From: Candidatus Oxydemutatoraceae bacterium
Lineage (GTDB): Bacteria; Pseudomonadota; Gammaproteobacteria; Poriferisulfidales; Oxydemutatoraceae
NCBI GenBank assembly: GCA_965226235.1
Contig: OZ245335.1
Span: forward strand, 1,260,427 to 1,324,426
Direction: 5' to 3'
DNA length: 64,000 bases
In this document: positions 5,890-64,000 of the stretch, piece after piece
Layout of the letters: the number at the start of each line of letters is the position of its first letter
How positions within the stretch are numbered: position 1 is the stretch's first letter
Notes under the pieces: model-generated
Seen by the model: only the letters and a program-made list of their open reading frames with translations
Databases searched by the model: none
What the model was told of the DNA's origin: nothing
Translations under genes and position numbers: made by a program

Positions 5890-5895
5890 GCGGCA

Positions 5896-10222: not shown

Positions 10223-11173
10223 ATGTTTATTCTGGGTGTAGGAGCACCAAAAACAGGGACGACCTGGCTCGCCGCGTATATAAGGCAATCACCCCGGTAT
10301 GTGCGGTTTTGCGAAGAAAAAGAACAGCATGTCTGGGATCGCGTATGTATCCCATTAATGAAAGGACGGAAAAGAAAACTCCGCAGAATCTTGCCGGGCT
10401 TGCTCCGTACCCCCGGCCGCCGGTGGGACCGTCTGCGGCAGTATATTGCGTTGTGGTTAATGGAAAAAATCCCGGCTTATTACTTTTACCGCCTGCAACG
10501 GACGCTTCGCAACAAGGAAAATATCACGCTGGATATCACCCCGGCTTACATGGGGCTGTCCAAAGAGGATTTCATCAAAATCAGAAACGGGCTGAAAAAA
10601 TACGACATACGGACGAAAGTCGTGTTTCTCATGAGAGACCCTGTCGAAAAATGCATCAGCCACTATAAGAGCATCAGCTATCGGCACCTCAACACACAAG
10701 GAAAAGGAACCCTGGAGAAGCCTGCCCCGTACTGGTGGAAAGAAGTATTTCACTTGCATGGATCAGCGTCCGCATTAGCCGATACGGCAGGACTGAAAAA
10801 ATATTGTACATTGGCAGAAACCAGGTTCAAAACAAGCTATCAAGATACGATCGCGAACCTGGAGGCTGTGTTTGCGCCGGAACAGTTGTTTTTCGGCATC
10901 TATGAAAACCTTTTCGAAGAACAGTCCATCGCCGCGCTGTCCGATTCCCTGGAATTACCCTATAATCCCGCGTTTGCCAAACGATGCATCAATTCCGCGT
11001 TTGCCAAACGATGCATCAATCCCAATCTCATAAAGCACATTGATGTGGATGTCGACGACGACACAAGAAGATTCATCGCCGAAGAATACAGAAGCACCTA
11101 TGCGTTTTGCGCAACCCGGTTTCCGGTAACCCGGAAACTGTGGGGCGGTTTTCAATGGCTGGACCGGGCATAG
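10223..11173 (+). CDS. PAPS-dependent sulfotransferase-family protein, tandem copy 2. It is a paralog with a replaced central segment.
   Basis: Shares more than 90% identity with copy 1 apart from a mosaic region (HYEAEEASRLKRGINLSGSVFALPDKAG versus HYKSISYRHLNTQGKGTLEKPAPYWWKEVFHLHGSASALADTAG). Both copies keep the PSB and PB motifs. Confidence 0.7.
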   Translation: MFILGVGAPKTGTTWLAAYIRQSPRYVRFCEEKEQHVWDRVCIPLMKGRKRKLRRILPGLLRTPGRRWDRLRQYIALWLMEKIPAYYFYRLQRTLRNKENITLDITPAYMGLSKEDFIKIRNGLKKYDIRTKVVFLMRDPVEKCISHYKSISYRHLNTQGKGTLEKPAPYWWKEVFHLHGSASALADTAGLKKYCTLAETRFKTSYQDTIANLEAVFAPEQLFFGIYENLFEEQSIAALSDSLELPYNPAFAKRCINSAFAKRCINPNLIKHIDVDVDDDTRRFIAEEYRSTYAFCATRFPVTRKLWGGFQWLDRA

Positions 11174-46950: not shown

Positions 46951-48954
46951 ATGAATATCCCCCTCGGGAAAAAATTGTTCTTTTCGGCAATCTACCTCGC
47001 GTTAATTACCAGCGCGCATTTTTCCGGATTAAGCCTCGTCAGCGGTAACCTGTGGATCAAGGTCTTCTGGAAAGATTTGCAAATCCTTCTGCTGTCAGCA
47101 TTGGTGCTGATGGTTGTTTATATCGTCTCATTCTCGGCTTTTTTACTCTCCGGAAAAAAACGGGAACTGCGTTGGCCAATAGTGTGTTTCCTGTTCAGTC
47201 TTGGAGTGGTGTGTTTTTCGTACGTGATGCTCTTTCCCAAAGGTGTATTTCTCCAGAAGGTCAGTGTCAGTGTGGTCTTGTTCTCATGGATTGCAATTGC
47301 TCTGGTTTTTTTCCAGACAGAAGCAACTTTCCTGTCGAAAGTCATGCGTTATGTTCTGGGAATCATTTTGTTTGCCATTAGCATGACCTCGATATACAAG
47401 CATCAGGATCTGCTGGAGATGCTTTTTTATCCGAAGGCTCTGATTGCAGATCAGTCTGTTGAGAAAAAGTTCGACAAGAAAGAATCAAAGATTCGCACAA
47501 GTTTTTATAACCTGTCCACCATAGAGTATTCCATTTCAGATTACTACATACCGGCAAAACTGGCAAATATTCCCAGTTACCTTGGAGTGATCAATGACAA
47601 AAATTTTCTTGTCATTGATCGTCTCGGCAACATGTTTCATTTGTATCTGAAAAGCAACGCAAAAGAAAAGGCAACATTTGAAAAAGAGAATCTCTATAGA
47701 AGGATGCTGGCGGCAAGGTTCCCGATCAATTACCGGGAGGTCAACAAGTTCAACAAGTTCAACAAGTTCAACAAGTCTTATTTTCGGGTACATGATTTGT
47801 ATATAGAAAGAGAGAATGAGAGTGGAGAGCAACGATCACTGTACGTTTCCCATAGTTTCTGGAACGCTGAAAAGGAATGTTTTACTGTAAGAATCACAAA
47901 GATGACCCAGGATATTTCGGTGCTGCTGGAATCGCACGCCACACCGACGTGGCGTACGCTTTATGAAAGCACTCCTTGCTTTCACAGATTATCTTCCGGC
48001 CACCAGGCAGGCGGCAGAATTGTCGGGATGGATGAGGAGAGTTTGCTGTTTACAATCGGCGATCACGGGTTTGATTCCACAGAAGATCCGGGGAACTTTC
48101 CTCAGGATATTGATACGGCGTATGGGAAAATCTGGAAGATTAACCGTACTACCGGAGAAGCTGACATGATTTCTCTGGGACACCGAAATCCTCAGGGGCT
48201 ATATCGCGCGCCCAACGGAACAATTTGGTCGACCGAGCATGGGCCTGCAAGCGGCGACGAATTAAACAAGGTAAATGTCGGTGCCAACTATGGATGGCCA
48301 CACGCATTGTACGGGACAAGTTACGGTGCGGAAACTTTGCGCGGCGAGGTAATTCAGAATGACCACGGAGATTATGAGCATCCTGTGTTTGCATGGGTGC
48401 CTGCAATTGCTGTATCCGAGTTGATTGGAGTCGAAGGAGATTTGTTCCCGCTGTGGAAAGATAACCTCCTGGTTTCTTCCCTGAAAGCACAAACCTTGTT
48501 TCGCCTGCAAATACATGAAGATCGTGTTGTTTATAGTGAAGCCATTAAAATAGATAAAAGAATCCGGGATTTGGCACAGACTTCCAATGGAGAACTCCTT
48601 CTCTGGACAGATGACCAATCGCTGGTGCGGTTGTTGCACAAGGAACAGCCCGCAATAAGCAAGGGCGAACAGATTTTCCAGGAAAAATGTGCTGCTTGTC
48701 ATAACATGTGGCCTGATCATGCGCACGGGTTCGGTCCGAATCTACACAATGTATACGCAAGCAAAATTGCAAGACACTCCGACTACAACTACTCAAAAGC
48801 ATTATTGGCACGAGCTCAGGACTCCTGGACCCGCAAAAATCTTGATCTTTTTCTGGAAAACTCCCTGCGTTTTGCGTCTGGCACTACCATGCAGCAAATA
48901 GAAATATCCGCCGACGAAAGACAGACATTGATTCAATATATGAGGAACAATTGA
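46951..48954 (+). CDS. Membrane-anchored PQQ-dependent dehydrogenase-cytochrome c fusion protein, copy 2 (667 aa)
   Basis: About 99% identical to copy 1, with around 8 amino-acid substitutions. It carries one extra 9-bp aacaagttc (NKF) repeat unit. Confidence 0.8.
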   Translation: MNIPLGKKLFFSAIYLALITSAHFSGLSLVSGNLWIKVFWKDLQILLLSALVLMVVYIVSFSAFLLSGKKRELRWPIVCFLFSLGVVCFSYVMLFPKGVFLQKVSVSVVLFSWIAIALVFFQTEATFLSKVMRYVLGIILFAISMTSIYKHQDLLEMLFYPKALIADQSVEKKFDKKESKIRTSFYNLSTIEYSISDYYIPAKLANIPSYLGVINDKNFLVIDRLGNMFHLYLKSNAKEKATFEKENLYRRMLAARFPINYREVNKFNKFNKFNKSYFRVHDLYIERENESGEQRSLYVSHSFWNAEKECFTVRITKMTQDISVLLESHATPTWRTLYESTPCFHRLSSGHQAGGRIVGMDEESLLFTIGDHGFDSTEDPGNFPQDIDTAYGKIWKINRTTGEADMISLGHRNPQGLYRAPNGTIWSTEHGPASGDELNKVNVGANYGWPHALYGTSYGAETLRGEVIQNDHGDYEHPVFAWVPAIAVSELIGVEGDLFPLWKDNLLVSSLKAQTLFRLQIHEDRVVYSEAIKIDKRIRDLAQTSNGELLLWTDDQSLVRLLHKEQPAISKGEQIFQEKCAACHNMWPDHAHGFGPNLHNVYASKIARHSDYNYSKALLARAQDSWTRKNLDLFLENSLRFASGTTMQQIEISADERQTLIQYMRNN

Positions 48955-49109: not shown

Positions 49110-50633
49110 TTATCCGACCGACCTGACAAACCTGGCAAATCTCGCGGGCCAATCACTGTTGGTCGAGCGCAAATGAACAAAGGACGCCAGCAGGTTGGCG
49201 TATACGATCCCGTCCTTGCCACCACCGATACCGTCGCCTCGCAATACCTTGTAAGCGGTTTTCATCTCGCCACCGAAATTGACCAGCTTTGCATGATGAA
49301 ACTCGTGACCGGCGTAAACGGGCGTTGCGTCATCGCTGTTCGTCCAGGGCATGTCAAGGGTTTCCTCCACTCGCACGTACCCTCTGCCGCATGGGCGCTC
49401 GCACATGACGGCGTCAGCCTGAATGACACCGACCATCGCATGGCGCTCCTTCCGCCAAGCTATGCTGCGGCTCAAGTACATCAACCCGCCGCATTCAGCA
49501 TAGGCAGGAAGCCCCCCTTCGATAGCACCTTTGACCGCCGCGCGTAAAGAGATGTTGGCTTCCAGGTCGGCGGCATGAACCTCGGGGAACCCGCCACCTA
49601 TGAAAAGCGCGTCCACCGCGGGCAACCTGGCGTCGTGCAGCGCGTCGACAGCCACCAGCCTGAACCCGGCATGCGAGAGCGCCACGAAATCATCCGGGTA
49701 ATAAAAGGAAAAAGCAGCATCGAAAAAAACGCCCAGTGCCTTTTTGGAAGTCTGGTTGCTCCCGGCTCCGGACGGTGTGTTTTTCCGCATCGTCGACACG
49801 AAAGCTGCCGGGCGCTTGTCTTCGGCAGAAGTGCCCGCCGCGTCGGGAGCCTGCCGCTGGCCACCCTGATTGGGCGCGCGCGCAAAGGTGATGATTGCGT
49901 CCAGGTCCGTATTCTCGCTCACGATTTGCCGCATGGCTTCGACTCGCTCGGCAGCCTGCCGATGCTCGCGGCCAGGTATCAGACCGAGATGTCTCTGCGC
50001 CAATGACATGCGCCGCTCGCGCGGCAGGTGGCCGACGACGGGTACATCGGTGTAAGACGTTACGGCAGCTTCGAGTTTGCCCGCATGGCGCGAGCCGCCA
50101 ACCTTGTTGAGCACAACTCCCGCGATATGCACTTCACGGTCAAAATCAAGATAACCACGCAGCAAGGGAGCCACGCCTCGAGTCATACCCTCGCAGTCGA
50201 GCACCAGGATAACCGGAACACGAAGGAGTTTCGCTAAAGCAGCATTGCTGTCACTGCCATCGAGGGAGACGCCGTCGTAAAGGCCCTTGTTGGCTTCGAT
50301 CACAGCGATGATGTCAGGCTTCCCCTCCGCACCGGTGAGACCAGGGCGGCGAACGGCAGCATCGAGAAAAACGTCGCCGTCCCACCCGGCAGCGCATCGG
50401 CCAACAAACATGTCGACGATCTCTTCGGGTGTCTGGGTATTGAAGTCCAGGTTATAGCAAGCGCGCTTCGCGGCACTGCCAAGCCATTGAGGGTCAATGT
50501 AATCAGGCCCCTTTTTGAAGGGATACACCGCACGGCCCCGGCGCGTCAGTTCGGCGCACAGCCCGGTGGAGAATACGGTCTTGCCGGACGACTTGTGCGC
50601 TGCGCTGATCAGCAAGCGTGGGAAGGCAAACAC
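49110..50633 (-). CDS. dsrN: DsrN, siroheme amidase (CobB/CbiA-like cobyrinic acid a,c-diamide synthase homolog)
   Basis: A 507 aa protein with an N-terminal ATP-binding CobQ/CobB/MinD-type domain (SAAHKSSGKT) and a C-terminal glutamine amidotransferase domain. It is the last gene of dsrABEFHCMKLJOPN. Confidence 0.85.
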   Translation of the reverse strand: MFAFPRLLISAAHKSSGKTVFSTGLCAELTRRGRAVYPFKKGPDYIDPQWLGSAAKRACYNLDFNTQTPEEIVDMFVGRCAAGWDGDVFLDAAVRRPGLTGAEGKPDIIAVIEANKGLYDGVSLDGSDSNAALAKLLRVPVILVLDCEGMTRGVAPLLRGYLDFDREVHIAGVVLNKVGGSRHAGKLEAAVTSYTDVPVVGHLPRERRMSLAQRHLGLIPGREHRQAAERVEAMRQIVSENTDLDAIITFARAPNQGGQRQAPDAAGTSAEDKRPAAFVSTMRKNTPSGAGSNQTSKKALGVFFDAAFSFYYPDDFVALSHAGFRLVAVDALHDARLPAVDALFIGGGFPEVHAADLEANISLRAAVKGAIEGGLPAYAECGGLMYLSRSIAWRKERHAMVGVIQADAVMCERPCGRGYVRVEETLDMPWTNSDDATPVYAGHEFHHAKLVNFGGEMKTAYKVLRGDGIGGGKDGIVYANLLASFVHLRSTNSDWPARFARFVRSVG

Positions 50634-50660
50634 AACGGTGGTCCGGGAAAAGCCCGCCAG

Positions 50661-51866
50661 CTACTCTGCCTGCAAGTCAAATTGCGAATCCCTGAGATCG
50701 GCTGGCAGGAAATCCAGCACGGCGAGCAGAAAAGTCAGCACCGCCAGCGACAAGCCAAGTCCGCCGATACACAGCAACAACTCGGGCACACTCGGCACAT
50801 AAGAGGCAACCTCGCCGTCAAAGAAAGAACTGCTCTCCTGCATGCCCGGGAACATCACCAGCGGGTAGGCCTGCCCTCCAATGATCATCACGTACAGTTG
50901 CGCGAAAGCACCGACCAGCACCAACGCGCACCCGGCGACCATCGCTGTCCGCGAGCGCCTGCATGGCGAGGTGTAAAACAGTGCCAGCGGAAGCAGGCTA
51001 CCGAGGCCAATCTGCACCAGCCAGAACAACGCGGTATATACCCCGCCATCGCGCAGGATAAACGCGACGATGCCGTGGTGCTCGGTTGCATACAACTTGG
51101 TCAGGAAGTAAGCGAGTACGAAATACAGTACCGCGCCGATAAATATGCCCAGCAGGTTCCTCAAGCGAAACAGTATGTAGTCTCCGACACCGACGCCGGC
51201 AAAACGTGACGCCGCCATCAGCACCAGTATGAAAACCGCGAGTCCGTAAGCAAAAGACATGAAGATAAACAGCGGAGGCAGGATCGCGGTGTCGTAAGCC
51301 TGACGGGCAACCAGGAACCCGAAAATGGCACCGGTGCCGGTGGTCAGCATCAGCCGCCAGAAAAACGCCACAAACCCGAGCGCGCGGATGTATTTGTTCA
51401 TGCGCCGCTCGAACATCATCCATAAGTACACGATCACCACCAGGAACAACCCCATATAGAGAAAGATATTCCAGGCAAAGATCGACTTGAAGTTGTAGTA
51501 CGTCATGGCGATGATCAACCGGTCAGGACGCCCCAGGTCCAGTACCAGCACCGCGAGACCACCGATGAGGAAAGAGATCGCCACCAAACCCGACAACCGG
51601 GCCAGCGGCTTGTAGTGCGCTTGGTTGAAAACCGACGCGATAGAAGCGGCATTCAGCGCGCCTGAGGCGACCAGGATCATGAAGATCGCGGCGACATGCG
51701 GCACGCCCCAGATGACCTGGTTGCTCATACCGGTGACGTGATGTCCCTGGTGTTCCATGTAATAGGCGGCACCGCCGCCGATGGCAGCAAGCACGGCGAA
51801 AGCAGCCAAGGTCAGATAATAGCCGGCGGTGTCCGCATCAAACGCCCTGTAGCGAAGCGGTTTCAT
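50661..51866 (-). CDS. dsrP: DsrP, NrfD/PsrC-family integral membrane quinone-interacting subunit
   Basis: A 401 aa polytopic membrane protein of the NrfD family, positioned between dsrO and dsrN. Confidence 0.85.
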   Translation of the reverse strand: MKPLRYRAFDADTAGYYLTLAAFAVLAAIGGGAAYYMEHQGHHVTGMSNQVIWGVPHVAAIFMILVASGALNAASIASVFNQAHYKPLARLSGLVAISFLIGGLAVLVLDLGRPDRLIIAMTYYNFKSIFAWNIFLYMGLFLVVIVYLWMMFERRMNKYIRALGFVAFFWRLMLTTGTGAIFGFLVARQAYDTAILPPLFIFMSFAYGLAVFILVLMAASRFAGVGVGDYILFRLRNLLGIFIGAVLYFVLAYFLTKLYATEHHGIVAFILRDGGVYTALFWLVQIGLGSLLPLALFYTSPCRRSRTAMVAGCALVLVGAFAQLYVMIIGGQAYPLVMFPGMQESSSFFDGEVASYVPSVPELLLCIGGLGLSLAVLTFLLAVLDFLPADLRDSQFDLQAE

Positions 51867-51883
51867 CCTGTGGGTTGCCTGCG

Positions 51884-52627
51884 TCAGATACCTTGATAAC
51901 GCACGCCGAGGTTCAAGCCCAGATCTGCACGGATCTGCGAACCGCCATACTCGGCAAGGCGTCTGGATATTTCACTGCCAGGATCATTCAAGTCACCGAA
52001 AATCAGTGCCCGATGTCCTTCCTCCTCGCACGCCGCCGCGCAGGCTGTAATGCCGTCCCCCCGATCTACCTTGTGCACACACAGGGTGCAGCTCTCCACC
52101 GTGCCTTTCCCCCTGGGAGCATGCGGCAGCGGCTCCTCAACCGGCTCGTGGATAAACGACCTGGCCTTGTATGGGCACGCCATCATGCAATAACGGCAGC
52201 CGATGCAGGTATGCTTGTCTACCAGCACGATGCCGTCGGCACGCCGAAAGGACGCGCCAGTCGGACATACATCGACGCAAGGTGGGGTCTCGCAGTGCTG
52301 GCACATGACCGGAAAGGACTTCTGGTAGCCGGTCGTAGCGTCACGAATCGTTACTTTGCGTATCCATTGCGCGTCGGTCGCAGGTCGATCATGCCCGGCA
52401 AGACCATGCTCTTCGTTACAGGCAGTCACGCAGGCGGTACAGCCATTGGCACAACGATTGGTATCGACCAACATGCCCCAGCGTGCCTCGCTGCTTACCG
52501 GCTCGTGCGGAAGACGGTTTTTCGCTTGCCCAACCGAATACAGCAACACGCCAGGCGCAACGCCGAGACCGACGACCGCTGCGGTACTTTTGAAAAAATC
52601 CCGGCGAGACTCGTCCACATTACTCAC
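51884..52627 (-). CDS. dsrO: DsrO, periplasmic 4Fe-4S ferredoxin-like subunit (Tat signal; probable GTG start overlapping the dsrJ stop)
   Basis: The Tat motif SRRDFFKSTAAVVGLGVA is present. There are multiple CxxCxxCxxxCP ferredoxin motifs (CTACVTACNEE, CQHCETPPCVDVCP, CIGCRYCMMACP, CTLCVHK). Confidence 0.8.
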   Translation of the reverse strand: MSNVDESRRDFFKSTAAVVGLGVAPGVLLYSVGQAKNRLPHEPVSSEARWGMLVDTNRCANGCTACVTACNEEHGLAGHDRPATDAQWIRKVTIRDATTGYQKSFPVMCQHCETPPCVDVCPTGASFRRADGIVLVDKHTCIGCRYCMMACPYKARSFIHEPVEEPLPHAPRGKGTVESCTLCVHKVDRGDGITACAAACEEEGHRALIFGDLNDPGSEISRRLAEYGGSQIRADLGLNLGVRYQGI

Positions 52628-53061
52628 CGCAGACGGGAAACCTGTTCTTTCAGCCCATCGACCCTGCGCACATACGCTTCCAGGGGACGGTCCGCATGGC
52701 ATTGGAAACAATCCACGCTGACACTGCTGAAAACATGGCAGCCCTGGCAGAAGTGATCTGCATCGACGTGACGAGGGTAGGTGCCGTCTGCGCGCGCTTG
52801 TACGTGGCAATCAATGCAGTTCACAAATCGGTGCTGCTCGGTCCGGATGCCGTGATGCACTGTTTCGTCACGCTGGTGGAGAAGAAACTCCATGTGACTG
52901 CGACGCATGATTTCGGTCGGCTCAACGCAACGATCCCCTTTGGCGGGGGGGATTTCCGGCAACAAACGACCATCAGCATACGCCTGCGCCATTAGGAAAA
53001 TCGCACCGGCCAACGATAGCACTAATGCCAGGGCGGAAAGAGGCGCAATCGGAAAGGACAT
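52624..53061 (-). CDS. dsrJ: DsrJ, triheme cytochrome c
   Basis: Signal peptide MSFPIAPLSALALVLSLAGAIF and three CxxCH motifs (CIDCH, CQGCH, CFQCH). Start is taken at Met32 of the ORF. Confidence 0.8.
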   Translation of the reverse strand: MSFPIAPLSALALVLSLAGAIFLMAQAYADGRLLPEIPPAKGDRCVEPTEIMRRSHMEFLLHQRDETVHHGIRTEQHRFVNCIDCHVQARADGTYPRHVDADHFCQGCHVFSSVSVDCFQCHADRPLEAYVRRVDGLKEQVSRLR

Positions 53062-53081
53062 CGCCGTGCGATCGACAACTT

Positions 53082-55058
53082 TCAGTGATCGCCCAAAGCC
53101 ATGTCGATGTAGCCGGTCGGACATACGTCCGCGCAAATATGACAACCTATGCATTTGTCGTAATCGGTGTCCACATAGCGCCCAAGCGTGCTATCGGACT
53201 TTTCGACCCGATACACCGCGTCCTGTGGACAGTAAATGACGCAGTTATCGCACTCAAAGCACATCCCGCAACTCATGCAACGGCCGGCTTCCTGTATCGC
53301 TTGCTCTTCGGTCAGACCGACCACACGCTCATTGAAATCTCCCAGCACACTTTTTTCGTCAGGACCACAGGTGGCGCGACGGACGCGGGGGGTGTAGTCA
53401 AAGTGGCCGAGGAACAGGTGATCGGAATCCGCTATCTCCTGTGCCGATCGGTCTTCATAATTGTGTACCGAATATCTGGCGTCGCAAGTCCCCCACTCGC
53501 CCGTCTCCCCGGCAGCAAAAGCATCCGGCTCAAGCCCGGCTTCCTGAAGCTTGGCAAGCAGACTGAAGTGGTGCACGTCAACCTTGGGACGTTTGCCGGC
53601 TTCCTTGCCGGATAGATAGCTGTCTATGGTAGACGCGGCAACCGAGCCCTGCCCGATCGCGGTAGTCAGCAGATGCGGACGAATGATGTCGCCGGCAGCA
53701 AAGTGCCCTGGCCTGTCGGGCAAGGCATATAGCGGATCGACATCCATCAGCCCTCTACCGTTGTCGAATTCTTCCAACCCCTCCAGGTCACCGCCCTGGC
53801 CGATAGCCGACACAATCAAGTCGCATTCCACTTCAAACTCGGTGCCCTCGATCGGCATCGGCTTGTTCTCGCGTATTTCGCATTTCACCATTCTCAGCGC
53901 ACGCGCCCGGCCGTTTTCATGCAACAGCACCTCAATCGGCATCACACCGTCGTGCACATTCACCCCTTCCTTGAGGGCATCGTCGACCTCCTCTTCGCTG
54001 GCGGTCATCTTGTCCCGCAGAAACAACGAGGTCAGAACCACACTGGCACCCTCACGCGCCGCCGCCAATGCCGCATCGTGCGCGACGTATCCACCGATCA
54101 CGTACTCGGGCAACGCCTTTTCGTGTATCCTCGGAACCTTACCGAGACGTCTGGCAACCGACACCACATCGATCGACGTATCGCCGCCGCCAACGCAGAT
54201 AACCCGGTCTGCGGTCACCTTCAGCCGCCCCGTGTTAAAGGCTTCGAGAAACTTCACCCCGGAAACGCAGTTAGGTGCCTCACCGCCCGGGACCGGAAGC
54301 CCGCGGCCGGTCTGGCAGCCTACGCACCACAGCACCGCGTCAAACTCTTCTTCAATATCAGCTACCGCGATATCGCGCCCAACGCGCACCGCGGTTCGCA
54401 CCTCTATGCCCCCGAGCTCAAGAATTCTCTGAATCTCGTGATCGAGCAACTGCCGCGGGGTTCTGTATCCAGGGATGCCATAACGCATCATTCCACCCAA
54501 CTCGTCGTGTTCTTCGAAGACCGTGCTGCCGTGCCCCTTCTGCCGCAGATGGTACGCTGCCGAGAGCCCTGCCGGGCCACCGCCGATGATAGCCACGTGC
54601 TTGTTCCCGAGTGCTACGCCATTGGCAAACTTGAATCCCTTCTGAATTGCCGTATCGCCAATGTATTGCTCAACCGCGTTGATGCCGACGTAATCCTCAA
54701 CATGGTTGCGGTTGCAGCCTTCCTGGCAGGGCGCGGGACACACGCGTCCCATCATGGAGGGGAATGGATTAGCGGCAGTCGAGCGCTGAAACGCGTATTC
54801 CGCGGCACTGACTTCCTCGGGCGGCTTTTCAATGCCGCGAACGATCTGCAGCCAGCCGCGAATGTCCTCGCCAGAAGGGCAACTACCCTGGCACGGCGGC
54901 GTGCGATGAACATAGGTGGGGCATTTGTGGGAACGGTCGGCAGAGAAAATGTCGTCCGCGAGAGCGGACCACTTGTTGTCGCCCTCCTGAAACCGGAGGA
55001 AGGTAAGCTTCTGTGTGGCCGGTTGCTGGGTGGCCGTGTCTTTGATGTTTGCGCTCAT
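53082..55058 (-). CDS. dsrL: DsrL, NAD(P)H:acceptor oxidoreductase (GltD-like flavoprotein with Fe-S clusters)
   Basis: A 658 aa protein with N-terminal Cys clusters (CPTYVHRTPPCQGSCP), the FAD/NAD Rossmann motifs VAIIGGGPAGLSAA and VICVGGGDT, and a C-terminal ferredoxin (CMSCGMCFECDNCVIYCP...CIGCHICADVCP). Confidence 0.85.
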   Translation of the reverse strand: MSANIKDTATQQPATQKLTFLRFQEGDNKWSALADDIFSADRSHKCPTYVHRTPPCQGSCPSGEDIRGWLQIVRGIEKPPEEVSAAEYAFQRSTAANPFPSMMGRVCPAPCQEGCNRNHVEDYVGINAVEQYIGDTAIQKGFKFANGVALGNKHVAIIGGGPAGLSAAYHLRQKGHGSTVFEEHDELGGMMRYGIPGYRTPRQLLDHEIQRILELGGIEVRTAVRVGRDIAVADIEEEFDAVLWCVGCQTGRGLPVPGGEAPNCVSGVKFLEAFNTGRLKVTADRVICVGGGDTSIDVVSVARRLGKVPRIHEKALPEYVIGGYVAHDAALAAAREGASVVLTSLFLRDKMTASEEEVDDALKEGVNVHDGVMPIEVLLHENGRARALRMVKCEIRENKPMPIEGTEFEVECDLIVSAIGQGGDLEGLEEFDNGRGLMDVDPLYALPDRPGHFAAGDIIRPHLLTTAIGQGSVAASTIDSYLSGKEAGKRPKVDVHHFSLLAKLQEAGLEPDAFAAGETGEWGTCDARYSVHNYEDRSAQEIADSDHLFLGHFDYTPRVRRATCGPDEKSVLGDFNERVVGLTEEQAIQEAGRCMSCGMCFECDNCVIYCPQDAVYRVEKSDSTLGRYVDTDYDKCIGCHICADVCPTGYIDMALGDH

Positions 55059-55179
55059 AATGCTATCCGTGGATTTCCTTGACCCTGATTATTCTAGAGG
55101 GCAGCACGGAAGAACCGAATATACCCTTTTGTATATACTCGCCTGCAAGGCTTGGTGGTGCCCACCCGCCTTGAAGACC

Positions 55180-56760
55180 TCATGCCAACTGCGCTTCGGC
55201 GGGGACATCCGCTGCCTGCGAAACCGCCGACGCCGCGTCGTACGTATCATCGACGGGTGCTACTTCAGGTTCGAGCACGATGGCATCGCCAACCAGTTGA
55301 TGCAGGCTGACGATTTGATCCATCTCAAATCCGTAGTAAGGCAACACCTTGGAAAACTGGCTCTTGCAAATGGCACAAATCGCCGCCATGTGAGTTACGC
55401 CATAGTCTTCTACAACCTCCTTGAGTGCCTCCATGCGAGGCAAGGCTCCCTTGACCCGCAATTCGATCAGGTCATCGGTGAGCAAACCGCCACCGCCACC
55501 GCAACAGTAAGTGCCCTCCCGGATCGTTTCTGCAGACATATCATAAAAATGATTGCAGACCGACCGGATAATGTCCCGCGGAATAGTGAATTGACCCCCG
55601 GGGACGTCTCCCATGCGAGACGCGCGCGCGACGTTGCACGAGTCGTGGTAGGTCACACGAATGGAGTCGTTGCACGACGGGTCGAGCTTGAGCCTGCCCG
55701 CCTTGATCAATCCGTGCGTGACTTCGCAGATATGCTGCGGTACCGGATAATCAGGGTCGAGAAAATCGAACGGCCCGGCAAGCGTGTTGAGGAAACTGTA
55801 CGCGACCCGCCAGGCGTGCCCGCACTCGCCAAATACGATGCGCCTGACGCCCAGTGAAATCGCGGATTCGCGAATCCGTAGTGCCAGCTTGCGCATGTTC
55901 TCATAGTTGCCGATAAACATGCCGAAGTTGGCGGCTTCGCTGGCGCTCGAACTGACCGTCCAGGAAATGCCGGCCTGATGGAATACTTTGGCATAGCCGA
56001 TCAATCCATCGATGTGCGGTTCGGCAAAAAAGTCGGCCGACGGCGTCACCAACAACACTTCCGCGCCTTTCTCATTGAGCGGGAATCGCACCTTGACCCC
56101 GGTATCGTCAAACACCTCTTCCTCCAACCCTTCGAGCGTGTCACGCAACGCCGGTTCCGGCAAACCCAGGTTATTGCCGATCTTATGCACCTTGCCGATG
56201 ATTTCATTGCAGTATTTCTGCCCTTTGCCGACGTGATTCATCACTTCCCGGGCCGCCATGGCAATTTCCGAGGTATCGATGCCGTAGGGGCAATACACCG
56301 AACAGCGTCTGCATTGCGAACACTGATGAAAATAATTCCACCACTGGTCCAGCACATCCTTGGTCATGTCCTCGGCACCGACCAGTTTGGGGAAATACTT
56401 GCCGGCAAGGGTGTAGTAGCGCCGATAGACCTTGCGAAACAGGTCCTGCCTGGCAACCGGCATATTGTTCGGGTCGGTAGTCCCCAGATAGTAATGACAC
56501 TTGTCGGTGCACGCCCCGCACTTGACGCACGAGTCAAGAAACACTTTCAACGAGCGATACTTGCCAACCAGCTCGCCCATTTTGTCGACCGCGTGTGATT
56601 CCCAGTTATCGATCAATTCTCCGGGAAACCCCAGTGGCTTCTGTATCCCGGGCTTTGCCACGTAGGGGCCGCTGATGTGGGCCATCGCGCCTTCCTGCAA
56701 TTTTGGAATAGCACGATCCTCGCGCATCTTCGGTGTTTCAAACTGCTGTTCCTTCGCCAT
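55180..56760 (-). CDS. dsrK: DsrK, HdrD-like catalytic subunit with CCG domains
   Basis: Ferredoxin-like motifs CVKCGACTDKC and CSQCRRCSVYCP, plus the CCG-domain cysteines CCGGGGG. Length 526 aa. Confidence 0.9.
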   Translation of the reverse strand: MAKEQQFETPKMREDRAIPKLQEGAMAHISGPYVAKPGIQKPLGFPGELIDNWESHAVDKMGELVGKYRSLKVFLDSCVKCGACTDKCHYYLGTTDPNNMPVARQDLFRKVYRRYYTLAGKYFPKLVGAEDMTKDVLDQWWNYFHQCSQCRRCSVYCPYGIDTSEIAMAAREVMNHVGKGQKYCNEIIGKVHKIGNNLGLPEPALRDTLEGLEEEVFDDTGVKVRFPLNEKGAEVLLVTPSADFFAEPHIDGLIGYAKVFHQAGISWTVSSSASEAANFGMFIGNYENMRKLALRIRESAISLGVRRIVFGECGHAWRVAYSFLNTLAGPFDFLDPDYPVPQHICEVTHGLIKAGRLKLDPSCNDSIRVTYHDSCNVARASRMGDVPGGQFTIPRDIIRSVCNHFYDMSAETIREGTYCCGGGGGLLTDDLIELRVKGALPRMEALKEVVEDYGVTHMAAICAICKSQFSKVLPYYGFEMDQIVSLHQLVGDAIVLEPEVAPVDDTYDAASAVSQAADVPAEAQLA

Positions 56761-56764
56761 GAGA

Positions 56765-57508
56765 TCAACGTCCTGTTTTATCGGCCTCCAGCTTCAGTGC
56801 CCATGCAACCACGTGACGACGGTCCCGAGGGTCGTCGACCTGGTTGCGCGTCGGGCTGAAGAAAATTCCCGGCGCATGCAACAGCTTGCTGAAGGGGAAA
56901 ACCAGCATCAGCATGGCGACCAGTGTCAGGTGAACAATGGCCAGGGCGTCTCCCGGCAAAGGCTGCCAGTCAAAATACATAAGCCCCAGAAAAAATGCCT
57001 TGATCGAAACGATATCGACTTTGAAAGCGAACGTCATCAGTATGCCGGTGACCCCGATTGCAAGCAGTAATAACAGCATCAGGTGATCGGAAGGCGAAGA
57101 AATATACCGCACCCGATCGACGACGATGCGGCGCAGCCATAGTCCTGCCAGCCCGACTACCATCATCAGCGACGCGTACTTGCCGAGCGGCTGTATCCAG
57201 TTGACCCAGAACCACACCGGTTCGGTGAAATAGCGCAAATGGCGCAGCAATACCAGCAGCAAACCGAAGTGGAAGAGCCAGCCAAACAACCATATCCACT
57301 TGTTGGATTTGAACAGGCTCTCGAACAACGTCAACTCCTTGAACATCCTGAACACCACACCGCTACGGGTGACGGGGGCGGGCATCGTCGGGATTTTCAG
57401 CGGCGCAGGCGTGCGCGCGTAATCCCACACCTTGCACGCCGTGGCAACCACCAGCACCGCGGTGGCGGCGTAAAAGAGCAAGGCATAGGCAACCGTCAGG
57501 GCCGACAT
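56765..57508 (-). CDS. dsrM: DsrM, NarI-like dihaem cytochrome b membrane subunit (start taken at Met88 of the ORF)
   Basis: A five-TM protein with the conserved His ligands (FHFGLLLVLLRH and HLTLVAMLMLVFPFSKLLH). Confidence 0.85.
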   Translation of the reverse strand: MSALTVAYALLFYAATAVLVVATACKVWDYARTPAPLKIPTMPAPVTRSGVVFRMFKELTLFESLFKSNKWIWLFGWLFHFGLLLVLLRHLRYFTEPVWFWVNWIQPLGKYASLMMVVGLAGLWLRRIVVDRVRYISSPSDHLMLLLLLAIGVTGILMTFAFKVDIVSIKAFFLGLMYFDWQPLPGDALAIVHLTLVAMLMLVFPFSKLLHAPGIFFSPTRNQVDDPRDRRHVVAWALKLEADKTGR

Positions 57509-57647
57509 GCCACGTGCGCTGGCCGTTGATCGCCAGGCCGGCTGGCGATGACCCGCTTCAGTATTCGCATACCGCCCGGCGTATGCCCGCGACCCCGGCA
57601 CAACAGGTCTCCGGCGACTTCGCCTGGCAGAGCGAGGTATCCTGAAT

Positions 57648-57980
57648 TCAAACGCATCCGGTAGGCTTGGGTAGCCCGGCGTACTTGCAGGCTTGTTTCG
57701 CTGGACCGTACGGAAACAACTCGTACAGATACTTGCTGTTGCCCTTGTCCTTGCCAAGCTTTTTGCCAATCGCTTTGGTCAGCACCCGCACCGCCGGCGC
57801 GACTTGATACTGCTCGTAGTATTCACGCAGAAAGTTGATGACTTCCCAATGATTGTTGCCGAGTTCGGCGTCGTCGGCTTCCGCCATCGCATTCGCCAGC
57901 TCCGGCCTCCAGTCGCTCAAATCGGCCAGATAACCTTCTTCATCGGTCTCATAACTTTGTCCATTGATCTCCAGCGCCAT
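57648..57980 (-). CDS. dsrC: DsrC, sulfur-carrier substrate protein of DsrAB (TusE family)
   Basis: A 110 aa protein ending in the diagnostic C-terminal arm CKYAGLPKPTGCV, which carries the two conserved Cys. Confidence 0.95.
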   Translation of the reverse strand: MALEINGQSYETDEEGYLADLSDWRPELANAMAEADDAELGNNHWEVINFLREYYEQYQVAPAVRVLTKAIGKKLGKDKGNSKYLYELFPYGPAKQACKYAGLPKPTGCV

Positions 57981-58026: not shown

Positions 58027-58335
58027 TCACAGCCACGCCTGGATGGCTTTGTGCGAGACCGCAAGATCGACAAACCCCGCATAATCAACGATCCCGACGC
58101 CATCCATTATATGGCTTTTATCAAGACCGCGCGCCTGCACATCAGGGGCAAGCGCGTAAAACTTCAGATGTCCCATGGCAGCTTTTATTTTCTCCGCATG
58201 CGGTGTGCAATCGAGCGAGGCAAGCACGCCGTCTTCAAACAACAGCACCGAACTACCCTCTTTGGCAAGGCGCAGACACGACGCCAGCGTATTGCGCTCA
58301 AACGGAGACTTGTTCACCGTGTGCAGTACCGCCAT
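58027..58335 (-). CDS. dsrH: DsrH (TusB-like)
   Basis: A 102 aa protein with the DsrH/TusB fold pattern, in the E-F-H order. Confidence 0.85.
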   Translation of the reverse strand: MAVLHTVNKSPFERNTLASCLRLAKEGSSVLLFEDGVLASLDCTPHAEKIKAAMGHLKFYALAPDVQARGLDKSHIMDGVGIVDYAGFVDLAVSHKAIQAWL

Positions 58336-58345
58336 CGTAATTTCC

Positions 58346-58786
58346 CTAAAAGCTCAGGATGACATCCTGGGCGTCAATCACATCAGCCATTTCCCGACGG
58401 CTGACCACGTGAATTGAACTTTTTTCTACCCAGTCATCGTCCTCGTCCTCGTACGTAAGATCAAGCAGATCGGCAACGCTCAAACCACGTTCCTCAAGCG
58501 ATTCCTTCTCAACGTATATCTTGTGAATATCATAGTCTCCCAACGCGTTGTAAGTCGGCGAAAAGTTTTTCATGCCGATGCCCTTCGTATCCTGCCCTTT
58601 CTTCAGTTGGTAAACGCCATCGTCGATGAAGGCCAGACTCACGTCCTGCTCGAACGCCGCCGTAATCAGCACGACCTCCAGTGCCTCAAGCGCATAAATG
58701 GTGCCGTAAGGCAGCTTTCGGTTCACATAAAGAAACTTTCTGACGGCGCCACCGTTCCCGGCTTTCTCTTCAGGTTCTACCTGCAT
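58346..58786 (-). CDS. dsrF: DsrF (TusC-like)
   Basis: RKFLYVNRKLPYGTIYALEALEVVLITAAFEQDVSLAFIDDGVYQLKKGQDTKGIGMKNFSPTY closely parallels A. vinosum DsrF. Confidence 0.85.
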   Translation of the reverse strand: MQVEPEEKAGNGGAVRKFLYVNRKLPYGTIYALEALEVVLITAAFEQDVSLAFIDDGVYQLKKGQDTKGIGMKNFSPTYNALGDYDIHKIYVEKESLEERGLSVADLLDLTYEDEDDDWVEKSSIHVVSRREMADVIDAQDVILSF

Positions 58787-58822: not shown

Positions 58823-59215
58823 CTAGTCGCCAAAAACCATCAGGCGGTCCGCCTGTATGCCCGCCTCGATCAACTGCCCCAAACCCGAAATACGAAACCC
58901 CTCGGCAAGATTGTGAGCGTCCTTGCCATGACGCCTGGCTTCATCCTGGTCGAGAATTCCACGTCTTTGCGCGGCGGCAACGCACACAACCAGATCAATT
59001 TTGTGCTCCTTCGCCAGATCGCTCCACAGGTCCGTCAGGTTGCGGTCATCTTGCGGGGGCACCGTCAACCGGGTGCCGTTATTGACACCGTCGTTGTAAA
59101 AAAACACTCGGAATATCTCGTGGCCCTTCTCAAGGGCAGCTTTCGTGAATCGGTAAGCGCTGTCCGAGGCTTGATGGGTGTAAGGGCCTTCGTTGACCAG
59201 AATGCCGAACTTCAC
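58823..59215 (-). CDS. dsrE: DsrE (TusD-like) with the active-site Cys
   Basis: MKFGILVNEGPY...DLVVCVAAAQRRGI, 130 aa. Confidence 0.85.
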   Translation of the reverse strand: MKFGILVNEGPYTHQASDSAYRFTKAALEKGHEIFRVFFYNDGVNNGTRLTVPPQDDRNLTDLWSDLAKEHKIDLVVCVAAAQRRGILDQDEARRHGKDAHNLAEGFRISGLGQLIEAGIQADRLMVFGD

Positions 59216-59260: not shown

Positions 59261-60334
59261 TCAGAACCGGATATGTGTCGAAGCGTTCAGGCTACGCCGG
59301 GCACCGGGCCAGTTATCAACGTGAAACTTGGTAAACGGCAACTCGGTAAACTCGAAGAACCGCGGCCATCCGATACGCTCGATCCACTCGTTCATGCGCT
59401 CCCAATCCTTCGCGTTGTCCCTGTAGGCGTACAGGATTTTCTTGACCACCGCGGTCGCTTCGGGCCAGCGTGGCGGATTGTTGGGTATACCGGCCGCGAC
59501 CAACTTCTGGAAGGTCGGCTTGCCGCGCGCGTTCGAATGGTTGCCGCCGACCCAGACCGCAAGCTTGGTATGCTCCGGATCATTGATCTGCATGGGTGGA
59601 CACGGCGGGTAACACGCCCCGCAGCAGATGCATTTTTTCTCGTCTACTTCCAGGGACGGCTTGCCGTTCACCACGGCCGGACGAATTGCCGCGACCGGGC
59701 AACGCGCGACCACCGAGGGTCGCTCACATACGTTGGAAACCAGGTCGTGGTTGATCTTTGGCGGCTTGGTGTGTTGTACGTTGATCGCGATATCTCCCTG
59801 CCCACCGCAGTTGATCTGACAGCACGAAGTGGTCATATGCACCCGGTTCGGCATGTTCCAGCCCTTGAACTCCTCGATGAGTTCATCCATCATCGCCTTG
59901 ACAACCCCGGACGCATCGGTGCCGGGAATATCACAATGCAGCCATCCTTGCGTGTGCGACATCATCGCCACCGAATTCTTGGTGCCACCAACGACGAACC
60001 CCTCGCTTACAAGTGCTTCGATCAGCGGCTCGACCCTGGACTCGTCCGCCACCATGAATTCGATATTGCTGCGGATCGTGAAACGCACGTAGCCGTCGGC
60101 GTACTTGTCACCGATATCGCAAAGCTTGCGCAAGGTGAATACGTCGAGGATACGTTGGGTTGCGGCGCGCACCGTCCAGATCGCGTCGCCGCTGTGCGCG
60201 ACATGGCGCAATACGCCCGGTTTCGGGTCATCGTGGAACTTCCAGTTTCCGTAGTTCTTGCGCATCACGGGGTGCATGAACTGAAACCCATCGGGGCACC
60301 CGGATTCAATGGGGCTACGGTGATGTTGTGCCAT
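59261..60334 (-). CDS. dsrB: Dissimilatory sulfite reductase beta subunit DsrB (reverse-type)
   Basis: A 357 aa protein. It has a ferredoxin insert (CICCGACYPPCP) and a siroheme/4Fe-4S Cys cluster (TTSCCQINCGG). Confidence 0.95.
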   Translation of the reverse strand: MAQHHRSPIESGCPDGFQFMHPVMRKNYGNWKFHDDPKPGVLRHVAHSGDAIWTVRAATQRILDVFTLRKLCDIGDKYADGYVRFTIRSNIEFMVADESRVEPLIEALVSEGFVVGGTKNSVAMMSHTQGWLHCDIPGTDASGVVKAMMDELIEEFKGWNMPNRVHMTTSCCQINCGGQGDIAINVQHTKPPKINHDLVSNVCERPSVVARCPVAAIRPAVVNGKPSLEVDEKKCICCGACYPPCPPMQINDPEHTKLAVWVGGNHSNARGKPTFQKLVAAGIPNNPPRWPEATAVVKKILYAYRDNAKDWERMNEWIERIGWPRFFEFTELPFTKFHVDNWPGARRSLNASTHIRF

Positions 60335-61685: not shown

Positions 61686-61809
61686 TTTCCCTCTCCGCAC
61701 ATCGTTCATTGACCATAGGTTTCTAATGATTGCACATGAACTCCGCCAAAGGAAACCTACCCTTTGGTGATAGCGGCGCAGCCTGCATGGCGTTTTACAC
61801 TAAGCCAGT

Positions 61810-62820
61810 ATGAAAATGAGCAACGCCGTCTGTTCAGCCACCTGGGCCGCTCGACAGAATGCTCCGGTTCTCTCTGACCAAACATCCGTCCAGGCGGCAG
61901 AGTCACCGTTTCTGATCGAAAACGAAACGGCCTACCGTCGCTGGCGTACGCGCAAGCTCGCTTGCTTCGTGGCCGGGCGCAACGACCTTGCCACCCCGGT
62001 GACCGTTACCGATCCGGCAGCGTTGAACGCAGCACAGCACGCCGCGATCACAACCCGCTGCCGACAACATAACCTCGCCTTTTACCAAGTCGCATGCGAC
62101 CGGGACAGGGGGATCGACAAAGACACATTCAAACTGCTTTGTCGGCAACTCGGTCTGCGGACGCTGATCACCAACCCCTGTGCCGATACCGACGCCATCA
62201 GCAGCATCCGCATGGTACCGGGTGCCCGCTACATCCCTTACACGGGAAACTGCCTGAAGTGGCACACCGACGGCTACTATAATGACACGACCGGTACCGT
62301 GCGCGCGTTCGCCATGCATTGCGTGCGACCGGCTGACAAAGGAGGCGAAAACCAGTTCTTTGATCCGGAAATTCTGTACATCCTTCTACGCGATGAAAAC
62401 CCGGATTACGTAACAGCGCTGATGCACCCGGAAACTTTGACCGTGCCGCAAAACTCCGAAGAGAAAAATCCTGCCGACATCAGGCCCCGGCGTTCGACCT
62501 CCGCGCTGACAGTGGACGGGATGGACGGGGACCTGGTGATGCACTACACGCAACGTAACCGACACGCGATCTGGCGTGATGACCCTGTCACCGCCCGGGC
62601 ACGCCGCTTTATTCGGGAGGTGCTCGACTCGCCCGGGGAATACCATGTCCGTTATCGTCTCGACCGCAACGAAGGCGTGGTTTGCAACAACGCCATTCAC
62701 AACCGTAGCGGGTTTGGTGATTCACCACGGCCCTCGCGACGGTTGCTGTACCGCGCGCGTTACCGGGAGCGGGTTGCCGGCACGGGACATGCAACGCTAC
62801 CCGCCCAACCTCGATGCTGA
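61810..62820 (+). CDS. TauD/TfdA-family Fe(II)/2-oxoglutarate-dependent dioxygenase
   Basis: The HxD facial-triad motif LKWHTDGYY and the C-terminal VVCNNAIHNRSGF...R region fit the TauD fold. It is divergent from dsrA across about 125 bp. Confidence 0.65.
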   Translation: MKMSNAVCSATWAARQNAPVLSDQTSVQAAESPFLIENETAYRRWRTRKLACFVAGRNDLATPVTVTDPAALNAAQHAAITTRCRQHNLAFYQVACDRDRGIDKDTFKLLCRQLGLRTLITNPCADTDAISSIRMVPGARYIPYTGNCLKWHTDGYYNDTTGTVRAFAMHCVRPADKGGENQFFDPEILYILLRDENPDYVTALMHPETLTVPQNSEEKNPADIRPRRSTSALTVDGMDGDLVMHYTQRNRHAIWRDDPVTARARRFIREVLDSPGEYHVRYRLDRNEGVVCNNAIHNRSGFGDSPRPSRRLLYRARYRERVAGTGHATLPAQPRC

Positions 62821-63008
62821 CCGTCAGCGACATACTGCTCAAGCACCACGAACTGTCGAGCTTTGAACAAATGCGGCAGTTGGTCAAAGCCTACGCGAGC
62901 AACGGCGAAATATTTCTCGCGTTTGACGTGCGCCCCCCCTTCAAGGATACGCCAGAAAACTGGGAAGCCCTGCTGGAAGCAACCTTTACCACCAACGTCA
63001 AAAAGTAA
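62814..63008 (+). CDS. Hypothetical small protein (64 aa), possibly spurious
   Basis: ORF only. It overlaps the end of the dioxygenase gene by 7 bp. Confidence 0.2.
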   Translation: MLTVSDILLKHHELSSFEQMRQLVKAYASNGEIFLAFDVRPPFKDTPENWEALLEATFTTNVKK

Positions 63009-63025
63009 CCGCAAGGGAATCATCC

Positions 63026-63706
63026 ATGTACTGGGAAGACGCCACGCAGGAGCCTCGGTATAAAGTGCCGGAAGACATCATCGACCTGAGTTTTCGGATC
63101 GCTTGCCGCTGCCTGCCGACGAACTACGCCGCCCCGCTGGAGGCGGCACTGGTTACACAGTTGCCGTGGCTTGCCGACGAACCACTCGCTGGTATATATA
63201 TGGTGTATGGTGCCGAGTTCGGCAATGGCTGGGCGCGCCAGAGCGGTGACGACGCACTCGTGCACCTGTCCACGCGCGCACGCCTGAATCTACGCTTGCC
63301 GCGAGCACGCGTTGCACAGGCCACGCAACTGGAGAAACGGAACATCGACATCCTCGGGTACCCATGTGGCATAGGCAGGAGCAAAACACGTCTGTTGAGC
63401 ACACATGGCACTTTATTCACCCGGCACCTCTTCCCGGCCGGGCGCGACGAAGAAGCGTTTCTGGAAAACGCCGCCCGCATGCTTGGAGAGCTAGGCATCA
63501 AGCCGTTGAAAATGCTGGCAGGACTCAGCCGGACTATCGAGACCCCACAGCAAAAAATAGCAACCAGCAGCCTGATGATAGATGGACTGAAGCCACAGGA
63601 GTCGGTGCTGTTACAGCAACACGGATTGGGGAAACGGCGAACGCTGGGTTGTGGTATTTTCCTTCCCCACAAAAGCATCGCCCCCACGAGAGCATCACCG
63701 CCATAA
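63026..63706 (+). CDS. Cas6e (CasE/Cse3)-like RAMP endoribonuclease homolog, orphan
   Basis: The C-terminal segment ESVLLQQHGLGKRRTLGCGIFLP parallels E. coli CasE LIDLVQQGIGPAKSMGCGLLSLAPL, including the QQ-G-x-G...GCG glycine-rich loop. The N-terminal RLNLRLP resembles CasE LYFRLRANP. No other cas genes or repeats are in view. Confidence 0.4.
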   Translation: MYWEDATQEPRYKVPEDIIDLSFRIACRCLPTNYAAPLEAALVTQLPWLADEPLAGIYMVYGAEFGNGWARQSGDDALVHLSTRARLNLRLPRARVAQATQLEKRNIDILGYPCGIGRSKTRLLSTHGTLFTRHLFPAGRDEEAFLENAARMLGELGIKPLKMLAGLSRTIETPQQKIATSSLMIDGLKPQESVLLQQHGLGKRRTLGCGIFLPHKSIAPTRASPP

Positions 63707-64000
63707 GCAGCAAACCAATGTCGGGGCAGGGCGATCACCGACGCGGCGCCCCCTGGAGTTTATGCGGCAACACGCATCGTCGCCTATCGCCCGCCGCCGC
63801 CATGCGGCAGACCCTGCCCCTGCAGAGCCCCCCCGTTCACCGAGTCCGGGTTCAGCAAAATCTGCCGGTTGCAGTAAGGCCAGGGTCAAACCGGACCGAC
63901 CCACATCCTGCCAACACCTGGCTCGTACGGAGGTCCATGGTGCGGTAGACTTGTACGGTGTGGTTCTGCAATGCAGATTTGCTACATGATTCCAACAACT

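Follow-up and report, generated by a model that had tools for sequence, protein, structure and literature searches.

A Cas6 homologue of the Cmx6 family beside the reverse-Dsr genes of sulfur-oxidising Gammaproteobacteria, very probably domesticated outside CRISPR-Cas

The Cas6-like gene, its family and its surroundings

The stretch of DNA analysed here, in the following called the window, comprises 64,000 nucleotides from Candidatus Oxydemutatoraceae bacterium (contig OZ245335.1, positions 1,260,427 to 1,324,426), and coordinates refer to the window unless another locus is named. Its dsr genes form the reverse-Dsr (rDsr) sulfur-oxidation cluster of a gammaproteobacterium, for which the nearest GTDB species are Candidatus Oxydemutatoraceae of the order Chromatiales, and a short operon that diverges from dsrA runs towards the end of the window. 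One gene of this operon codes for a Cas6-like protein and is the subject of our analysis:

63026-63706, plus strand: Cas6-like gene, an open reading frame (ORF) of 226 aa with an ATG start; Cmx6/PF09559 family, dsr-linked clade

An earlier note, made from the letters of the window alone, had pointed out this ORF, and it is present as claimed with its ATG start (MYW...). The note took it for an orphan Cas6e-like gene and offered three options, namely a domesticated RAMP RNase, a remnant of a degraded type I-E locus or a false similarity. The protein begins with MYWEDATQ... and ends with ...QQHGLGKRRTLGCGIFLPHKSIAPTRASPP, and its C-terminal stretch reads QQHGLGKRRTLGCGIFLPHKSI.

The Cas6-like protein is a genuine full-length Cas6 which belongs to the Cmx6/type I-MYXAN (I-B) family and not to Cas6e. 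The Pfam family PF09559 ('Cas6 Crispr') matches residues 19–217 at E=1.3e-50 over the entire model (positions 1–191 of 191) and with a score of 172.5 bits, the curated cut-off being 26.7 bits, and several PADLOC Cas6 models match as well, the best of them at 5e-52. The score against NCBIfam TIGR02807 (type I-MYXAN Cas6/Cmx6) is 102 bits and lies barely above the cut-off of 98.85; members of the clade carry the label 'type I-MYXAN CRISPR-associated protein Cas6/Cmx6' from the NCBI pipeline. With a profile made from 37 homologues the sole relative among the PDB sequences is 8fcj_B (E=3.4e-24), the Cas6 of the type I-B CRISPR-associated transposon (CAST) Cascade. The AlphaFold2 model (predicted local distance difference test, pLDDT, 86.8; predicted template modelling score, pTM, 0.84) consists of two beta-alpha-beta units and has the tandem ferredoxin-like (RNA recognition motif, RRM) domains that are the hallmark of the Cas6 superfamily. 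Its best fold matches in the PDB are again the type I-B CAST Cas6 chains 8fcu_B/8fcj_B with a template modelling (TM) score of 0.76–0.80, and at least the 40 top matches are, every one, Cas6 or Cse3. The Pfam E-value, the match of the profile to a PDB sequence and the fold match together refute a false similarity.

The earlier assignment was thus right in recognizing a RAMP protein of the Cas6 type and wrong in the subfamily. The proposed check against the Cas6e family PF08798 gives no match at E<=1, the family hit being PF09559 instead; among the PDB sequences the profile retrieves no Cas6e chain at E<=10, and the Cse3/Cas6e structures reach TM scores of only 0.39–0.49 against the model. The motif that the note had quoted for E. 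coli CasE, VQQGIGPAKSMGCGLLSLAPL, is genuine, and since it is the true C-terminus of this protein (PDB 4dzd/4qyz) the local resemblance to Cas6e is real. The glycine-rich loop on which the resemblance was based is common to the whole superfamily.

As the note had stated, there is neither a CRISPR-like array in the 64-kb window nor another cas gene among the 57 window ORFs scanned with PADLOC; specifically, cas3, cas8a1, cas7, cas5, cas1 and cas2 do not accompany the Cas6-like gene in the window. It had also been suggested to look for cas genes past position 64000. Two loci of the same genome, L001 and L002, are identical to the window over 63000–64000 and read past its end, and there a gene of the DsrC family is followed by a polyprenyl synthase gene and no cas genes are found. 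CRISPR arrays are likewise missing from 82 dsr-linked loci (1.36 Mb), and the same script recovers, as a positive control, the arrays that flank the genuine I-MYXAN operon on a Nostoc plasmid. Two defining features of a CRISPR-Cas system, neighbouring cas genes and a neighbouring array, were looked for and not found, and we conclude that by its context the Cas6-like gene belongs to no such system. Copies of the dsr-linked clade on viruses or plasmids were not found in the collections searched, where the plasmid relatives are exclusively cyanobacterial and CRISPR-linked.

One PADLOC match in the window had to be discarded: the Cas3-like match at 11199–13286 is RecG (945 bits to the RecG model). 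This gene has weak matches to many Cas3 models of PADLOC and NCBIfam (E about 1e-13), and such a false positive could pass for a cas3 near an orphan cas6 in an automated scan.

Conserved neighbourhood, selection and partner genes

The neighbours of the Cas6-like gene are the following:

61810-62820, plus strand: TauD-like Fe(II)/2-oxoglutarate dioxygenase of 336 aa, first gene of the operon (PF02668, E=2.7e-14)
62814-63008, plus strand: s64, ORF for a conserved protein of 64 aa
64062-64403 (window-equivalent; L001 4529-4870), plus strand: cysteine-free DsrC paralog, 62 nt past the window, taken from the sequence of L001
60393-61709, minus strand: dsrA, ORF with NIR_SIR domains, divergent from the Cas6-like operon
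59261-60334, minus strand: dsrB
58823-59215, minus strand: dsrE
58346-58786, minus strand: dsrF
58027-58335, minus strand: dsrH
49110-57769: dsrMKLJOPN region, after dsrH

The TauD-like gene and its divergence from dsrA had been recognized before, and this part of the description stands; the ORF of s64, which separates the TauD-like gene from the Cas6-like gene, had been overlooked.

This arrangement is not a peculiarity of the window. In a scan of GTDB with one genome per species, relatives of the Cas6-like protein are encoded in at least 592 species, and the best 80 of these loci were compared by tblastn with the window proteins. Nearly all of the 80 belong to sulfur-oxidising Gammaproteobacteria, and the carriers include Oxydemutatoraceae, Thiogranum, Sulfuricaulis, Acidiferrobacterales, Ectothiorhodospiraceae, Thiohalobacter and the sponge-associated 'Porisulfidus'. 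The conserved layout has dsrABEFHC on one strand and on the other the TauD-like gene, s64, the Cas6-like gene and a cysteine-free DsrC paralog with an RKGGY end. Without exception, the 80 species loci and the six loci that were fetched separately have the Cas6-like gene next to dsr genes. The module diverges from dsrA in 60 of the 62 loci with enough flank, and from dsrEFHC in the remaining two. Where the upstream sequence is long enough, 73 of 77 loci contain the TauD-like gene; s64 is found in 76 of 80 loci, and the DsrC paralog follows the Cas6-like gene in 68 of 71 loci with enough flank. The same layout is shared by a relative with 40% identity on a 3.7-Mb chromosome, by 33%-identical relatives on marine contigs of Tara Oceans and by three close relatives of the window locus.

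Variants of the layout are found as well. In the Chromatiales-type loci L009 and L010 a module of s64, the Cas6-like gene and the DsrC paralog diverges from dsrEFHC, and dsrAB and the TauD-like gene are not there. In the distant dsr-linked relatives P0094 (Rhodocyclaceae) and P0096 (loci L085/L086) a DUF6967 protein replaces s64 and the TauD-like gene is absent. In 28 of 78 loci a further conserved ORF of about 235 aa without Pfam match separates s64 from the Cas6-like gene, for example, in L011 (8197–8906); L087 has this ORF (7292–7999) without a detectable s64. In locus L091, from a close relative of the window genome, the Cas6-like gene is separated from the DsrC paralog by an insertion of about 3 kb (4685–7954) with four ORFs on the minus strand that belong to no Pfam family. 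In a library of 1.84 billion proteins the Cas6-like family comprises 1729 clusters at E<=1e-3 and 355 at E<=1e-30; judging from the profile scores, this smaller set approximates the dsr-linked forms.

The Cas6-like gene is under purifying selection, with pairwise ratios of nonsynonymous to synonymous substitution rates (dN/dS) of 0.06–0.34. The values for the TauD-like gene and the DsrC paralog are similar, and those for dsrA are lower (0.01–0.09). Among 37 diverse members with identities down to 32% there are 12 invariant columns, including Q197, G200, G202, G208, C209 and G210, which are common to the CRISPR-linked Cmx6 proteins. Four of these residues are the glycines of the C-terminal glycine-rich loop QQHGLGKRRTLGCGIF. 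In Cas6 proteins this loop is the element that binds the RNA backbone. Furthermore, R84, R90, R133 and K216 show at least 93% conservation in a set of 261 members.

Other features are specific to the clade and absent from CRISPR-linked Cmx6: the N-terminal MYW, Cys27 (188 of 261 members), a GAESGNGWxRP loop with G68 in 257 and W69 in 254 of 261 members and low pLDDT in the AlphaFold2 model, and a PHK motif after the glycine-rich loop. Of these the divergent relatives P0094 and P0096 have the PHK motif and lack MYW, Cys27 and the GNGW loop. In line with this, the profile of the gammaproteobacterial clade gives about 300 bits for its own members, 138–153 bits for the two divergent dsr-linked proteins and 81–101 bits for true Cmx6.

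These data bear directly on two of the explanations for an orphan cas6. An inactive remnant of a degraded I-E or I-B locus, or a chance similarity, would agree with the lack of cas genes and of an array nearby. A remnant should not, however, present itself as an intact full-length ORF that covers the whole Pfam model at E=1.3e-50, with orthologues in at least 592 species, dN/dS of 0.06–0.34, 12 invariant columns and conserved synteny. The one non-CRISPR context in all loci examined and the purifying selection refute the I-E remnant of the earlier note, and the probability that we leave to decay or chance is so small that it can be disregarded for practical purposes. Of the three options of that note, the evidence favours the domesticated RAMP RNase.

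Alternatively, the protein could be a working Cas6 that processes CRISPR RNA in trans for an array, a type III system or another effector elsewhere in the genome, in which case its place beside dsr would be incidental. There is a precedent for this, as some CRISPR systems use a Cas6 encoded elsewhere (PMC12669027); in addition the NCBI pipeline names clade members type I-MYXAN Cas6/Cmx6, and our scans covered the loci of the gene only. On the other hand, adjacency to dsr in 80 of 80 and 6 of 6 loci is unexpected for fast-moving defence genes, the 1.36 Mb of flanks are free of arrays, the proteins are merely 25–26% identical to genuine Cmx6 and carry conserved changes of their own, they evolve slowly under purifying selection, and many carriers are chromosomes of only 1.7–2.8 Mb. 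We regard a service in trans as very improbable. We are highly confident that the Cas6-like protein is a domesticated, dsr-linked Cas6 homologue outside CRISPR.

What such a protein might do may be judged in part from its partners. The start of the s64 gene overlaps the stop of the TauD-like gene by 7 nt, and its end lies 17 nt before the start of the Cas6-like gene. Its family comprises 4084 clusters with 16 invariant columns, and the AlphaFold2 model is a confident three-helix fold (pLDDT 88), for which the PDB holds no analogue; Pfam and NCBIfam give no match. Two possible relationships of s64 were tried and given up. Kinship with the DUF6967 protein that occupies the same place in L085/L086 is weak (hhalign probability 7.5%), and although some NCBI records name s64 'sulfur relay protein DsrC', the hhalign probability for DsrC is 0.3%.

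The TauD-like protein gives weak matches to TmpA, its nearest solved relative, and to trimethyllysine and gamma-butyrobetaine dioxygenases. An HxD...H iron-binding motif was spotted by eye (WHTDGYY ... NAIHNRSG), and the start codon of the gene is conserved in close relatives.

The DsrC paralog belongs to the DsrC family (PF04358) and matches 1yx3 at E=5e-24. It is free of cysteines in 57 of 65 cases and ends with ...GLPES(R/M)RKGGY in the clade and with ...GLPKPYGKGGY at the two divergent loci. For the canonical DsrC encoded at the same loci as the paralog, the end is ...LPKPTGCV. Because both redox cysteines are lost the paralog cannot act as a sulfur carrier in the manner of DsrC.

Apart from the operon and the dsr genes, two pairs of paralogs in the window are worth recording. 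The adjacent sulfotransferase-like paralogs at 9263–10165 and 10223–11173 each contain a 27-nt tandem duplication (9953–10012 and 10964–11023) with near-identical units. The tandem paralogs at 44088–46082 and 46951–48954 are fusions of glucose/sorbosone-dehydrogenase domains to cytochrome c, and both contain a perfect TCAACAAGT repeat in three to four copies (44878–44904 and 47741–47776).

Intergenic motifs, RNA targets and a possible mechanism

Two non-coding regions flank the genes of the operon and were considered as control regions or as sources of an RNA target:

61686-61809, no strand: divergent intergenic region of about 124 nt between dsrA and the TauD-like gene, with the conserved motif AAACCTACCCTTTGGTGATAG at 61753-61773
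63930-64000, plus strand: start of a leader or promoter block of the DsrC paralog with a TAGACT -10-like box at 63946-63951, conserved in L001, L090 and L092

The extent of the first region assumes that dsrA starts at Met9 (61685), which is likely to be the true start as it is preceded by a Shine-Dalgarno-like sequence. Across species the region between dsrA and the TauD-like gene follows the pattern AGTCTAG, ~21 nt, A[AT]A[CT]CCCTNCCNTGGGGTG, ~20 nt, TTATCCC-N4-GRGATAG, of which AAACCTACCCTTTGGTGATAG in the window is a compact form that is kept in close relatives. On the strand of dsrA, AGTCTAG reads CTAGACT and may be taken, by its letters, for a -10 box.

The palindromic character of these motifs led us to consider RNA helices, and this was rejected: the pair-count test is unsupportive, the right arm GRGATA is invariant whereas the left arm varies uncompensated, compensatory change is missing from helix 2, and helix 1 varies along with the phylogeny. 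Since the pair counts do not support RNA helices, we take the motifs for DNA sites, and they are likely to be promoter or operator DNA and not the target of the Cas6-like protein.

Stem–loops of another kind were seen within the dsr operon itself. In many species the dsrA–dsrB and dsrB–dsrE spacers contain GC-rich stem–loops of 8–14 bp (e.g., in L016, L021, L046 and L050), which could be processing or stabilising sites. They have no sequence in common among the loci and show no link to the Cas6-like protein.

With these data at hand we suggest the following course of events. A Cmx6-type Cas6 (type I-B-MYXAN) would have left CRISPR-Cas and become fixed in an accessory operon of rDsr, which consists of the TauD-like gene, s64, sometimes the gene for the protein of about 235 aa, the Cas6-like gene and the cysteine-free DsrC paralog, and which diverges from dsrABEFHC. 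The Cas6-like protein probably still binds a specific RNA and may, in most species, also cut it. Together with the DsrC paralog, for whose family a regulatory role has been proposed, it could tune the expression or the stability of dsr transcripts after transcription. The DsrC paralog might act on DNA or as a decoy, and the TauD-like dioxygenase might add an oxygen-dependent input or modification. Taken as a whole, the reading of a domesticated Cas6 in a conserved accessory rDsr operon that binds RNA and helps in the control of dsr has our slight preference. Its RNA-level regulatory mechanism is put forward tentatively, with the odds against it, because no RNA target has been identified. We find it rather unlikely that the whole scenario is correct in its strongest form, in which the energy metabolism of sulfur oxidisers captured a Cas6 as a dedicated dsr regulator that binds or processes RNA and works with a decoy DsrC, s64 and an oxygen-sensing dioxygenase.

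Several observations weigh against an RNA-level function. Rfam, applied to four loci, gives no match near the operon; about 55 loci have no hairpin in common in the spacer that separates the Cas6-like gene from the DsrC paralog; the leader of this paralog, folded from three sequences, has no supportive covariation; and the conserved intergenic motifs behave as DNA sites and not as RNA helices. Thus, none of the computational searches made has yielded an RNA target for the Cas6-like protein.

A further point concerns the residue at position 34, before helix 1, which we take to be the site of the catalytic His in many Cas6 proteins (Cas6, Cas6e, Cas6f). Just before the helix 35–45 of the AlphaFold2 model 237 of 261 members have a His at this position, preceded by Asp. 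The window protein has N33–Y34 (63122–63127) where 91% of the family have Asp-His; Tyr34 is shared by 16 others, the closest relatives also have Asn-Tyr, and the CAST Cas6 has Asp-Asn. With a Tyr instead of a His at the putative catalytic position it is uncertain whether the window protein cleaves RNA. On a more general level, the 80 loci are the best of at least 592 matches and are biased to Gammaproteobacteria, and the array scans cover the flanks of the loci, so that a distant array served in trans is formally still compatible with them.

It is also conceivable that the Cas6 fold has been repurposed away from RNA. The protein would then be an adaptor or chaperone in the sulfur relay, which might hold the RKGGY arm of the DsrC paralog, present this arm to the TauD-like enzyme or modulate DsrAB–DsrC, or it would be a thiol or persulfide sensor by means of Cys27 and Cys209. 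The empty searches for an RNA target speak for such a role, as do the neighbours, which are all sulfur-metabolism proteins, and the putative catalytic His, which is dispensable in the lineage of the window. The gained and probably flexible GNGWxRP loop with its low pLDDT and Cys27 in 188 of 261 members are possible partner or redox features. Nevertheless, conservation is strictest in the glycine-rich loop, the RNA-binding element of Cas6 proteins, and several arginines are kept in addition, and Cys27 is missing from P0094 and P0096 although both are dsr-linked. We consider a role without RNA, the chief competitor of our reading, unlikely.

If our proposal of an RNA-binding, dsr-controlling Cas6 is correct, the protein would be the first Cas endoribonuclease domesticated for the regulation of housekeeping genes and would represent a missing level in the regulation of the rDsr pathway, including that of marine and sponge-associated sulfur oxidisers. 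The rDsr pathway drives sulfur oxidation in abundant bacteria of marine waters, sediments and groundwater and in symbionts, and its regulation is little covered in the literature searched; the operon of four to five genes beside dsrA is a candidate for this missing control. There is also a practical aspect, as the labels 'Cas6/Cmx6' on dsr-linked genes can mislead surveys into counting CRISPR components where a CRISPR system is absent. In the opposite direction, the pipeline for the classification of CRISPR systems treats matches to Cas profiles outside cas islands as false positives (PMC12669027), and because such matches are discarded the clade may have gone unnoticed.

Comparison with known systems

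The closest known system is Cmx6 of type I-MYXAN (I-B), which belongs to the same PF09559/TIGR02807 family and has the two-domain Cas6 fold, a similar length and the same glycine-rich loop Q..G.G.....GCG.F. Genuine Cmx6 genes on plasmids of Nostoc sp. MS1 and Gloeothece PCC 7424 stand at the head of cas6-cas3-cas8a1-cas7-cas5-cas1-cas2 operons, in contrast to the gene of the window. The Nostoc operon is flanked by arrays of 36-nt repeats; in the Gloeothece stretch no array was found. The dsr-linked protein is 25–26% identical to genuine Cmx6 and differs by an additional insertion of 8–10 residues (GNGWxRP). Cas6e (CasE/Cse3) is a more distant member of the same RAMP/Cas6 superfamily. It has a similar loop (QQGIGPAKSMGCGLL as compared to QQHGLGKRRTLGCGIF in the Cas6-like protein), but there is no profile match, the fold match is distant, and neither cas5e nor other I-E genes are present at the window locus.

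The second protein of the operon that invites a comparison is the DsrC paralog. Within the DsrC/TusE/RspA family, RspA is a group without both C-terminal cysteines (PMC8477390). The paralog beside the Cas6-like gene lacks both of them, as RspA does. The invariant RKGGY C-terminus is not described in the DsrC-family literature searched. In Allochromatium vinosum DsrC reportedly binds DNA upstream of dsrA, and DsrR/DsrS are said to be linked to post-transcriptional control in the same organism. The literature searched holds no published link between the DsrC/TusE/RspA family and a Cas6-like protein, does not describe any association of a Cas6 homologue with dsr genes, and offers no genetic or expression data on a part of the operon in sulfur oxidation.

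Recruitment of Cas proteins is known from transposons, plasmids and viruses. The non-defence recruitments described so far include the CRISPR-associated transposons, a derivative of type I-E with a STAND NTPase in Streptomyces, and the haloarchaeal HRAMP (PMC8730458). The reviews of CRISPR exaptation and classification (PMC8730458, PMC12669027) list no lone Cas6 that has become a constant part of a chromosomal locus for energy metabolism in hundreds of species. The known cases resemble the dsr-linked Cas6 in that a Cas protein is selected outside adaptive immunity, without an adaptation module and in some instances without an array. They differ from it in that several effector subunits (Cas5/Cas7/Cas8) are kept and remain tied to mobile elements or defence, whereas here a single Cas6 resides in an energy-metabolism locus.

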